A DNA stretch of 3,444 nt, from IMG/VR virus record IMGVR_UViG_2695420793_000012. One strand, written 5' to 3'. The stretch comes from a virus. Its lineage: Duplodnaviria; Heunggongvirae; Uroviricota; Caudoviricetes. The notes under the pieces are model-generated. The model saw nothing but the letters and a program-made list of their open reading frames with translations, was not told where the DNA came from and ran no database searches. Numbering within the stretch: the stretch's first letter is position 1; every line of letters begins with the position of its first letter. Both the position numbers and the translations under genes were made by a program. Below, piece by piece: positions 394 to 3,444 of the stretch.

Positions 394-408
394 GTTGGAG
401 TCATTACC
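386..408. repeat. IS1 right terminal inverted repeat (about 23 bp)
   Basis: Reverse complement of 386-408 reads GGTAATGACTCCAACTTATTGAT, the canonical IS1 end. Confidence 0.9.
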
Positions 409-784
409 TATTTTTCTTACCTGATTCGGGTAATGTTGACCATTCACTGACCACATTATTAATGCCGGTATTCCGCCCGCTCTGAATAAAAATCCCACGC
501 TTTACCAGAACACTTTTTGCAGCAGAACACTTGTGCGGCAATATCCCGGTTAATTCGGAAAGTTGCTCGTTGCTAACCCAATCCAGTTTTTTATTAAAGC
601 CATATGTTTTGCGCATGACAGCCAGAAAGACCAGAAGCTGGTGCTGTGTTAATCCGGCCAGCATCACAGCTTCCAGCAACTCATTTGCAATGCGCGTATA
701 ACCATCATCGAGATCTGCCACGCGCGGCTCCTTTTGTGCCGCATCCGGCACTGGAAAATTGAATATCTCAGCAGTGTTTGCCAT
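404..784 (-). pseudogene. Lambda O-like replication initiator, N-terminal DNA-binding domain only (126 aa); C-terminal part removed by IS1, stop codon supplied by the IS1 end
   Basis: ATG at 784-782 with GGAGG 4 nt upstream; MANTAEIFNF...RVADLDDGYTRIANELLEA...LLVFLAVMRKTYGFNKK...SEWSTLPESGKKNR resembles recalled lambda O N-terminus (MTNTAKILNF...NVADLDDGYARL...LRKTYGWNK). Frame runs into the IS1 IR, stop TAA at 406-404. The listed ORF start at 874 would overlap the upstream gene. Confidence 0.8.
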
Positions 785-870
785 AATTCCTCCCGCAATG
801 AGTGTGTTACGATTTGCACCTGAAAGTCGGTTCTGTTCCAGCAGACCGGCTTTCGCCATTTCTGAACCTG

Positions 871-1410
871 TCATATCGCCCCCAGCATGGTAGTAACCAT
901 CGCCATCAATGGACCAGCCAGATCTGGGTCCACACGAAACATCGACACAATACCTTCACTAATTTCCTTCAGTTTCTGGTGGCGTGGTGCGTTGAGAATG
1001 ACAGCCTGTTTTGCCTCACTGAGTTCCTTTTCCATTTCAGCCAACCTAGCCATGAAGCTATCCTGCTCAACCAGGTAACCGCGATATTCCAGCGGTAGTA
1101 CCGCCAGAATTGCCGGGGTCAGTTCACGCACGTTATTTCGGTATTTTTCAGAATCGAATTTGTTATCGAGGAAGCGGAACAGCTTCTGGCGTGCACGGCT
1201 GACATCATCAGGGAAATCGATGGTGCCGCCGCCCTGCTCCCGATACTCATTCACAATGAGTGTGGCAACGACATCCTGATTATCTACAGCCGACCAGGCG
1301 CGGACGGCATCACGGATTTTTTCGTGGCCTGGCACCTGTTTTGTTTGAGAACGATTTATCACCGCAGTCGGGCTAAATCCGCTAGTCTGTTGGTATGTAA
1401 GTGGTTGCAT
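871..1410 (-). CDS. ydaT: YdaT-family protein (proposed functional analog of phage CII; historically annotated as putative toxin), 179 aa
   Basis: Strong RBS AAGGAG 6 nt upstream of ATG (1410-1408). Motifs NEYREQGGG and LTPAILAVLPLEYRGYL match recalled E. coli YdaT (EEYLRQGGG, LIPAILAILPRELRHRL). Sits in the cII position between cro-like and O-like genes. Confidence 0.75.
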   Translation of the reverse strand: MQPLTYQQTSGFSPTAVINRSQTKQVPGHEKIRDAVRAWSAVDNQDVVATLIVNEYREQGGGTIDFPDDVSRARQKLFRFLDNKFDSEKYRNNVRELTPAILAVLPLEYRGYLVEQDSFMARLAEMEKELSEAKQAVILNAPRHQKLKEISEGIVSMFRVDPDLAGPLMAMVTTMLGAI

Positions 1411-1429
1411 AATTGACTCCTTTAGTTTG

Positions 1430-1449
1430 AATTGACTGTTAAGTTGATT
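1430..1449 (+). promoter_or_regulatory. Direct repeats TTGACT-N6-TTGATT (AATTGACT also at 1411-1418); candidate binding site for the CII-like activator / PRE-like establishment promoter reading toward the repressor gene
   Basis: Seen in sequence: ttgactgttaagttgatt; position (cro/cII-analog junction) and direct-repeat-N6 geometry parallel lambda CII sites TTGC-N6-TTGC at PRE. Function is inferred. Confidence 0.25.
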
Positions 1450-1454
1450 GCTTA

Positions 1455-1467
1455 TTGTTAAAGAGCG
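1455..1467 (-). promoter_or_regulatory. boxA-like element (nutR-like position), CGCTCTTTAACAA on minus strand
   Basis: Reverse complement of 1455-1467 is CGCTCTTTAACAA, matching the boxA consensus CGCTCTT(T)A and the rrn boxA core GCTCTTTAACAA; lies 12 nt downstream of the cro-like stop. No convincing boxB hairpin follows. Confidence 0.4.
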
Positions 1468-1479
1468 TGAAATGGAAAT

Positions 1480-2779: not shown

Positions 2780-2823
2780 AACAACTTTTGTTGTTGACGA
2801 TAAAACAACTATAGTTTTAAATA
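2780..2823 (+). promoter_or_regulatory. PL/OL-like promoter-operator module: palindromes AACAAC-TTTT-GTTGTT (2780-2795) and GTTGTT-N8-AACAAC (2790-2809); -35 TTGACG 2794-2799; -10 TTAAAT/TAAATA 2817-2823
   Basis: GTTGTTGACGATAAAACAACTATAGTTTTAAATAAG is near-identical to the PR module on the opposite strand at 1733-1768; downstream of repressor gene and terminator, oriented away from the repressor as lambda PL is. Confidence 0.5.
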
Positions 2824-3254
2824 AGTTCATCGCAACAACACAACGATACGGCAACTACCTGATTCACCGTTGCGATGACCGCTTAGATCCGCAGTTTGAA
2901 TTTCAGCAGGCTTCGGGGAGTGCGAGGGGTGAAACGGACGCGTGAACGTCGGTGTGACCAGCTGAAATTAACTCAACATTTCATACCTTAGTCGCTTCAA
3001 CGAGGCGGCTTAGTTATGACAACCGGCGGCCATCCACCGCCTGAATACGCGCAGAAGTCTCTATATGTTCAGCAGCCCAGCTTACGGGCAGGAGTTTTTA
3101 TGGTTCATCAACATTATGGAACGCAGACCGTTAATCGAGGTGCGGTCATGCCAGGAATGCTGGTCAAACACAAAGATGGTACCTGGACTGCATCAGCTAA
3201 TTTACGCGGACGGCTTTATCTGCATCGCGGCATCGAGCGCACTTATACCCGTGA

Positions 3255-3444
3255 TTTGCTCGTGGAAGTTTTTCTCGACGGACGCGGTACTCCGTTACGA
3301 AGCGAGGCTGGGTATTTCCCGGCCTTTCTGTTATCCGAAAGATGCGCATCGACAGCAAGACATCATGGCTATCAGCTTGTCGTCGTGCAGGAATTGAAGA
3401 TTTCCGTTTCCATGACCTCAGACACACCTGGGCAAGCTGGCTGA
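3255..3444 (+). pseudogene. Tyrosine recombinase (phage integrase) 3' fragment, 5'-truncated and apparently frameshifted; continues past window end
   Basis: Frame 0 from 3255 reads ...[46 protein letters not shown], containing the integrase box II motif HDLRHT. In-frame stops at 3198 and 3252; no room for an N-terminal domain; possible continuation in frame 2 ([12 protein letters not shown], 3278-3313) implies a frameshift near 3305. Confidence 0.7.

Follow-up and report, generated by a model that had tools for sequence, protein, structure and literature searches.

The early operons of lambdoid phages are, in the textbook account, expressed with the help of either the N protein and its nut sites or, in HK022-like phages, of put RNA. 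The nutR site of lambda, P22 and phage 21 is located on the PR transcript, after the cro stop codon and before a cII-type gene. Stand-alone boxA elements, which act without a phage protein, are known from the rrn leaders, the suhB 5' untranslated region and the CRISPR leaders of Salmonella and Vibrio, and this arrangement was shown to recruit the Nus complex and to block Rho (PMC7665894, PMC5725501). On its own, boxA nucleates the binding of NusB-NusE, which together with NusA, NusG and SuhB forms a Rho-resistant complex on RNA polymerase; at non-rRNA targets, boxA alone also recruits SuhB and the Nus factors and blocks Rho, and single substitutions of C4 abolish this activity (PMC7665894, PMC5725501). 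Here we analyze a boxA in a 3,444-nt stretch of DNA from an IMG/VR virus record of the Caudoviricetes (IMGVR_UViG_2695420793_000012; the whole stretch is referred to as the window). The element, CGCTCTTTAACAA, is located at 1455–1467 on the minus strand, matches the boxA motif exactly; on the PR transcript, it is predicted to bind NusB-NusE(S10). Its location is equivalent to that of nutR in lambda, P22 and phage 21, but unlike these sites it occurs, in the window and in intact relatives, without boxB, an N gene or nutL.

A first-pass annotation of the window, made from the sequence alone, had placed the 13-mer on the minus strand, starting 12 nt past the stop codon of the cro-like gene. Direct reading confirmed this sequence and a 12-nt spacer (1468–1479, minus strand) between the stop codon (TAA, 1482–1480) and boxA, compared with 9 nt in lambda, so that the proposed nutR position is also correct. 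The element falls in the 69-nt spacer between the cro-like and the CII-like gene and is oriented in the sense of cro and of the PR transcript. Its sequence GCTCTTTAACA (1466–1456, minus strand) is an exact fit, C4 included, to GYTCTTTAANA, the experimentally derived functional boxA consensus (PMC5725501). The boxA of the rrnB leader (TGCTCTTTAACAA) is identical at 12 of 13 positions, which agrees with the earlier claim of a match to both the consensus and the rrn core, and the window boxA is nearer to the consensus than that of lambda nutR (CGCTCTTA), being of the type found in P22, phage 21 and rrn. No other GYTCTTTAANA match was present in the window, where 0.02 matches were expected and 4 of 200 shuffled sequences contained one. 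The genome of the isolated phage PhiR34_1 (44.6 kb, both strands) likewise contains exactly one match, the one after cro, in the sense of PR. Because the match is unique in the window and in PhiR34_1, its sense-strand placement in the cro-cII-like spacer is not plausibly due to chance. In the predicted folds the boxA RNA was unpaired or at most weakly paired. With a consensus that includes C4, on the sense strand of apparently accessible RNA downstream of a PR promoter that we deduce from the divergent cI/cro architecture, the window boxA qualifies by sequence and context as a putative host Nus-factor BoxA element.

Six isolated phages (PhiR34_1, IdasGreatGrand, Turner, PhiR5_1, PhiR47_2 and PhiR26_1) carry the segment from cro to boxA at 98–100% identity. 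Neither PhiR34_1 nor IdasGreatGrand, the two genomes inspected, contains an N gene; both show the order PL, a leader of ~190 nt, kil, gam, bet and exo. The annotation had noted that the window lacks N, which is the case, the first PL gene being kil (phrog_294), and had suggested a search for an N-like gene in related intact prophages, which was negative in these two phages. When PhiR34_1 was scanned for small open reading frames whose products start with an arginine-rich segment, the early operons gave no match; the only matches were out-of-frame reading frames inside structural genes and a YlcI-like reading frame near bor. The further suggestion that the N region had been deleted from the window did not hold, as the window retains PL with its leader and 274 nt of the 5' end of kil, and N is missing from intact relatives as well. 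Since the two inspected genomes belong to a set of viable phages whose immunity region is 99–100% identical to that of the window and are N-less, the absence of N is by design in this lineage and does not result from a local deletion, and because both inspected carriers are N-less, the boxA module works in viable phages without N. A second boxA of the nutL type was not found within two mismatches anywhere in the window, including the PL leader, nor on the PL transcript of PhiR34_1, where the consensus occurs once genome-wide. Thus, among the four hallmarks of a lambda-type nut site, a boxA of the CGCTCTT(T)A type on an early transcript is present, while the other three are absent. As boxB, N and nutL are all missing, the window element is not to be classed as a nut site and cannot serve as an N-utilization site.

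HK022 and HK639 resemble this lineage in that they are lambdoid phages with cI, cro and a CII-like gene, but no N; in HK639, moreover, cro is related and cII is YdaT-like. Their put element is a two-stem RNA that binds the zinc-binding domain of the beta' subunit, whereas the window boxA is a 13-nt linear protein-binding motif. A covariance model for put was built from HK022 putL, HK022 putR and HK639 putL and recovered these training sequences at 80–93 bits. It looks for an RNA of ~70 nt with two stems and the motifs GAACGGC...GUCGG...GGCGGG.UCAGGA just past PL or cro. With this model, no put was found in the window, PhiR34_1, IdasGreatGrand or the loci L158, L159, L095, L157 and L092, and nothing was detected at 1411–1479 or in the PL leader of the window. 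One candidate at 683–760 (minus strand, 16.8 bits), in the O-like gene and in the sense of PR, was rejected since it lacks the invariant put motifs; its rough E-value was 4e-4 for the window and 0.009 for five sources, and it is probably a chance match. A search of the whole window against Rfam (E-value mode) gave only chance-level matches to microRNAs and ctRNA and nothing at boxA or the PL leader, and the PL leader could not be meaningfully aligned with the RNA upstream of KilS/kilR in Rac. The window element is not a put RNA.

The stand-alone boxA elements of the rrn, suhB and CRISPR type resemble the window boxA in that no phage protein goes with it. They differ in context: the rrn and CRISPR elements precede long untranslated RNA and the suhB element acts on translation, whereas the window boxA lies inside a translated polycistronic phage operon. 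Among the E. coli genomes shown in the published boxA list (Baniulyte 2017), the locus was not visibly included, and a limited literature search found no published example of an N-less lambdoid phage whose early operon contains a stand-alone boxA.

The annotation would have been undermined if the 13-mer were not conserved in related prophages. In the nearest Cro relatives it was conserved. The Cro proteins of L153/L160 and of L154–L156/L158/L159 are 82–84% identical to that of the window (L095 was not measured), and blastn similarity to these relatives stops inside cro. All of them (L153–L156, L158–L160 and L095) keep CGCTCTTTAA, followed by A or C and then AA, after cro, while the stretch from the stop codon to boxA is unalignable. 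In the alignment with these diverged relatives, boxA is the sole contiguous invariant block, conserved amid diverged flanks in four lineages. The PL promoter/operator string TTGTTGACGATAAAACAACTATAG of the window is also found in L158, L159 and L160. The distance from boxA to the next ATG ranges from 45 to ~105 nt among the relatives, and the gene after boxA may be of the YdaT type, of the lambda CII type or of unknown type; because this gene varies, boxA travels with the cro/immunity module and not with the cII-type gene. Furthermore, two unrelated upstream segments are found joined, at the ATG, to cII-like genes that are almost identical, and therefore the spacer in its entirety is part of the cro/immunity module.

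In the three left arms examined (L095; L158/L159; L160), no N was recognizable, and L095, L158 and L159 have no N-like reading frame between PL and kil. The PL leader of L160 contains an HK639-type putL (93 bits), so that this locus combines putL on the left with boxA and a hairpin on the right. The conservation of boxA in a clade without recognizable N is the best computational argument for an N-independent role, which it suggests at the level of sequence comparison. Two broader groupings were considered and rejected. YdaT-type cII loci generally lack boxA, which was present in only 2 of 59 such loci in other Enterobacteriaceae, both with hairpins. Nor is boxA typical of the Cro family as a whole, as 80 IMG/VR loci from another Cro branch and HK639 lack it; these have a GCCGC...GCGGC hairpin spanning the stop codon and a spacer of 25–35 nt.

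The relatives and the window differ in what follows boxA. All of the relatives carry a 6-bp hairpin, GGCUGA-(AUUA/GGAA/GAAA/GUAA)-UCAGCC, 18–19 nt after boxA (L153 3279–3294, L154 3280–3295, L156 3280–3295, L095 4952–4967), whereas the window does not, although module type, boxA and slot are the same. No named phage matching the relatives' region of boxA plus hairpin was found. Folding of the relatives gave the 6-bp hairpin at the place equivalent to the hairpin-less stretch of the window, which comprises the 44 nt from boxA to the CII-like start (1411–1454, minus strand) and includes the Shine-Dalgarno sequence AAGGAG (1422–1417). Between boxA and the next ATG of the window there was no stable hairpin or boxB: a fold of 60 nt had −3.6 kcal/mol (z = −0.26), the 91-nt region around boxA had −5 kcal/mol (z = +0.31), and another fold in a larger context gave z = −0.93. 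The RNA structure prediction that the annotation had called for thus supports its statement that no boxB follows. The segment AGTCAATTCAAAC (1437–1425) aligns with the 3' arm and flank of the relatives' hairpin, and the alignment has a gap of ~10 nt in the window where the relatives have the 5' arm. The window element hence looks like a boxA-plus-hairpin site minus its hairpin, which is suggestive, not proven, given the short alignment.

The same stretch contains four direct TTGA[ACT]T hexamers on the plus strand, in the sense of cI (1413–1449, with starts at 1413, 1427, 1432 and 1444), so that, of the seven such hexamers on the plus strand of the window, four are clustered in 40 nt beside boxA. 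In CP-933P, the junction of ydaS and ydaT contains a PRE-like promoter and the sequence TTGATT-N6-AATCAA, to which YdaT binds (PMC9986795). By analogy, the YdaT-type CII-like protein may use the hexamers of this cluster as operator half-sites, or the cluster may be a PRE-like region.

The explanation that we prefer, and to which we assign about even chances, is that the boxA of the window is genuine and was inherited as part of the immunity module, and that it recruits NusB/S10 and provides modest, dispensable and N-independent protection from Rho. It would correspond to that half of a nutR-type site on which NusB-NusE(S10) loads, residing in the cI-cro immunity module of an N-less, DLP12-type lineage. 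Upon derepression of PR, it would be transcribed right after cro as unstructured RNA, bind NusB-S10 and, together with NusA, NusG and SuhB, link the elongating polymerase to a Nus complex made up of host proteins only, as modeled on the rrn leaders, suhB and the CRISPR leaders. A perfect, unstructured boxA transcribed from PR should load this complex, because boxA alone nucleates NusB-NusE elsewhere; we infer both the Nus binding and the anti-Rho effect from this analogy. The expected outcome would be a modest reduction of both polarity and Rho-dependent termination from the cII-like gene through O and P into the nin-like region, helpful yet dispensable. Read-through of intrinsic terminators as in lambda would not be part of the effect; rrn-type Nus complexes are poor at reading through such terminators. 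E. coli K-12, the strain used for the published SuhB chromatin immunoprecipitation, lacks this immunity region.

Several observations weigh against a functional boxA. The prophage of this genome is defective, with O cut by the insertion sequence IS1 and the PL operon deleted, and therefore any function of boxA concerns intact phages with the same module. The hairpin was apparently lost by a deletion of ~10 nt, as expected of a decaying composite site, and boxA is missing from the other Cro branch described above and from HK639. Phage 4A7 (Bievrevirus) and its kin, which are viable, differ in cI/cro and have a spacer of 30 nt; starting with the first codon of the cII-like gene, their right operon is 96.8% identical to that of PhiR34_1, but their early region contains neither the boxA consensus or a one-mismatch variant nor an annotated N. 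Hence, this right operon can be expressed without boxA. The tightly packed, translated downstream genes already limit Rho, and a likely intrinsic terminator follows the emrE moron, en route to Q. Finally, 117 of 119 flank-anchored IMG/VR copies (L243–L361) were identical; one of the other two had an A-to-G change inside boxA (CGCTCTTTGACAA) and the other a C-to-A change two bases upstream of it. Such a near-clonal set gives a polymorphism test no power, and purifying selection within the lineage cannot be shown. Alternatively, boxA could be an inert relic, the surviving half of an ancestral boxA-plus-hairpin site whose hairpin and reading factor were lost, which may still bind NusB/S10 without consequence and persists only because there was too little time for decay. 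This main rival, which we regard as a tentative but serious alternative and as less probable than a functional boxA, accounts for the missing 5' arm and the aligned remnant of the 3' arm, for 4A7, for the near-clonal population with one boxA mutant among its 119 copies, and for the PL transcript without a second boxA. It sits less well with a perfect, undegraded 13-mer, and with the invariance of this block across unalignable flanks, including lineages without recognizable N, which argues for clade-level selection on boxA itself. In addition, Nus factors should in any case assemble on a strongly transcribed RNA that contains a consensus boxA (PMC7665894). The annotation had left open whether the element is an orphan nut site or a case of boxA-only antitermination. 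Both options survive, since sequence analysis cannot separate them: the functional option is favored by the retention of boxA between diverged flanks in four lineages, with no N recognizable in the three that were checked, and the relic option by the loss of the partner hairpin and by the sibling 4A7, which has the same right operon without boxA.

The other explanations appear less probable. The boxA could act as an attenuator similar to that of suhB, with the bound Nus factors repressing translation of the cII-like gene and promoting Rho termination, thereby tuning the decision between lysis and lysogeny. The next gene indeed encodes a CII-like regulator, boxA ends 45 nt before its ATG at 1410 and thus inside the 50-nt window used for target prediction (PMC5725501), and the published boxA list includes boxA elements next to cII/C1 genes (PMC5725501). 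However, the Shine-Dalgarno sequence lies ~32 nt past boxA, with no predicted pairing between the two, the overlap of O with the cII-like gene means that termination would also silence the replication genes, and the variable distance from boxA to ATG among the relatives does not fit such a role, so that we consider an attenuator unlikely. A constraint at the DNA level, with the 13-mer serving not as RNA but as operator or PRE-like DNA for the YdaT-type CII-like protein, seems very improbable. The four hexamers adjoin boxA, whose plus strand starts with TTGTTA, and YdaT of CP-933P protects a segment of ~95 bp with TTGATT half-sites where ydaS adjoins ydaT (PMC9986795), but the 13-mer is kept in relatives that have a lambda-type CII or an unrelated reading frame downstream, and the match to the RNA boxA consensus spans 13 nt, far beyond a hexameric half-site. 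Least probable of all is a conventional nutR that uses an unrecognized or trans-supplied N-like protein. Such proteins are small and diverse and could evade detection, and E. coli strains host several lambdoid prophages; against this stand the missing boxB-like hairpin on which N would act, the missing nutL, the early operons of PhiR34_1 without an arginine-rich reading frame, and kil as the first PL gene.

The immunity module concerned is widespread: 1459 of 5426 complete E. coli genomes contain it, as do several isolated phages, and it has neither N/nut nor put. If its lone boxA is functional, phage early operons would join rRNA, suhB and CRISPR arrays as targets of Nus antitermination that needs no phage protein, which would help to explain delayed-early expression in N-less lambda-like phages such as the Bievrevirus/DLP12 group. 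If it is a relic, it documents the decay of a nut site after the loss of N. The practical consequence for the defective prophage studied here is small under either reading.

The window corresponds, at 100% identity, to a chromosomal segment of many E. coli genomes, and the genome count given above refers to those in which at least 80% of its length is present. It is situated between ompT/envY and the tRNA-Arg gene argU, which is the DLP12 attachment region, and represents what is left at this site of a lambdoid prophage of the DLP12 type. On the minus strand, the PR operon starts with the cro-like gene (1480–1710), which encodes a 76-aa protein with a YdaS/Cro-type helix-turn-helix domain (Pfam YdaS_toxin, 4e-17; P22_Cro weak; phrog_35 transcriptional repressor, 1.5e-27) and is labeled Cro in phage records. 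The second gene of the operon (871–1410, minus strand) encodes the 179-aa CII-like regulator with a YdaT domain (Pfam YdaT_toxin, 8.5e-30; phrog_163 CII-like transcriptional activator, 3.9e-67) and overlaps O at 871–874. Only the 5' part of the O-like replication gene remains (404–874, minus strand; Pfam Phage_rep_O, 2.3e-34), since the 3' end of IS1 (1 to ~403) truncates it at ~403/404; RefSeq annotates a replication protein without its C-terminus, adjoining IS1B. Upstream of cro, the PR/PRM operator region (1711–1814) with a palindrome at 1749–1773 separates cro from the divergent cI-like gene on the plus strand (1815–2504; Pfam HTH_3 and Peptidase_S24 as well as annotation), which encodes a repressor with a helix-turn-helix and an S24 peptidase domain. 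The repressor gene is intact in this very widespread remnant of cI, cro and the cII-like gene, which may point to its retention for superinfection immunity.

A terminator at 2626–2652 is followed on the plus strand by the putative PL promoter/operator and its ~190-nt leader (2794–3015), which we assigned on the basis of TTGACG at 2794–2799 and a sequence that parallels that of PR. The first PL gene, kil, is represented by its 5' part (3016–3289, plus strand), whose intact homolog belongs to phrog_294 (Kil, 1.2e-38). At the deletion junction 3289/3290 the match of the window to intact phages stops, as seen in the comparison with PhiR34_1. Past this cut there is a terminator-like hairpin (3304–3326, GAGGCTGGGTATTTCCCGGCCTT), which in PhiR34_1 is positioned downstream of exo, and an annotated 3' fragment of the integrase gene extends from 3333 to 3444. 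Because the exo-distal hairpin and the integrase fragment directly follow the cut kil, the left arm was removed by at least one internal deletion.

Further RNA elements were observed in the related loci. Most Cro/YdaT-type modules (HK639, L151 3575–3600; L161–L240; many of L088–L149) have the GC hairpin GCCGC(T/C)TAAC(C)GGCGGC across the cro stop codon, followed by CCTAACCACGAAAGGGAAAGCAATG or a variant of it; the window is without this hairpin. The PL leaders of L158, L159, L160 and L095 open with a hairpin, AGCUGA-GCGAAG-UUAGCC, that is similar to the one after boxA in the relatives, and its counterpart in HK639 has the loop GGGAAG. In the PL leaders of L158/L159 (~6810–6780, minus strand) and L095 (~3260–3240, minus strand), a hairpin is followed by CCTGCTTTTTAACAA, which is a boxA with C4 changed to T. 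The order of hairpin and CCTGCTTTTTAACAA resembles the boxB-boxA order of rrn (compare GCCGCTGAGAAAAAGCGAAGCGGCACTGCTCTTTAACAA in rrnB). The function of this PL-leader boxA is doubtful, because published changes of C4 inactivate boxA. The long PL leader of L158 also contains an arginine-rich mini-open reading frame of 17 codons (~6480–6430, minus strand; MPVKQRERQTRTGYERR), which resembles an arginine-rich RNA-binding motif and is probably a chance occurrence.

The PL leader of the window (2829–3015, plus strand; L150 4816–4980; L004 11900–12098) was found in 54 sequence variants, and its part at ~2829–2990 is conserved at 94–100% in 16 isolated phages with at least two immunity types. It occupies the slot where L160 has the HK639-type put, and the two share the 3' end TTCATACCT(T/C)AGTCGCTTCA(A/T)CGAGGCGGCTTAGTT. 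The left operon of PhiR34_1 contains intrinsic terminator-like hairpins (L150 2599–2577 and 2002–1984, minus strand). The leader could be a candidate for a new cis-acting antiterminator RNA. One may speculate, though we hold it to be rather doubtful, that a viable N-less lambda-like clade (PhiR34_1, IdasGreatGrand and DLP12-type prophages) runs its right operon on a host-only, rrn-style boxA/Nus complex and its terminator-containing left operon on an unrecognized cis-acting leader RNA (~2829–2990). If true, this hybrid scheme of boxA and leader RNA would add a third mode of early antitermination to the N/nut and put systems of lambdoid phages.

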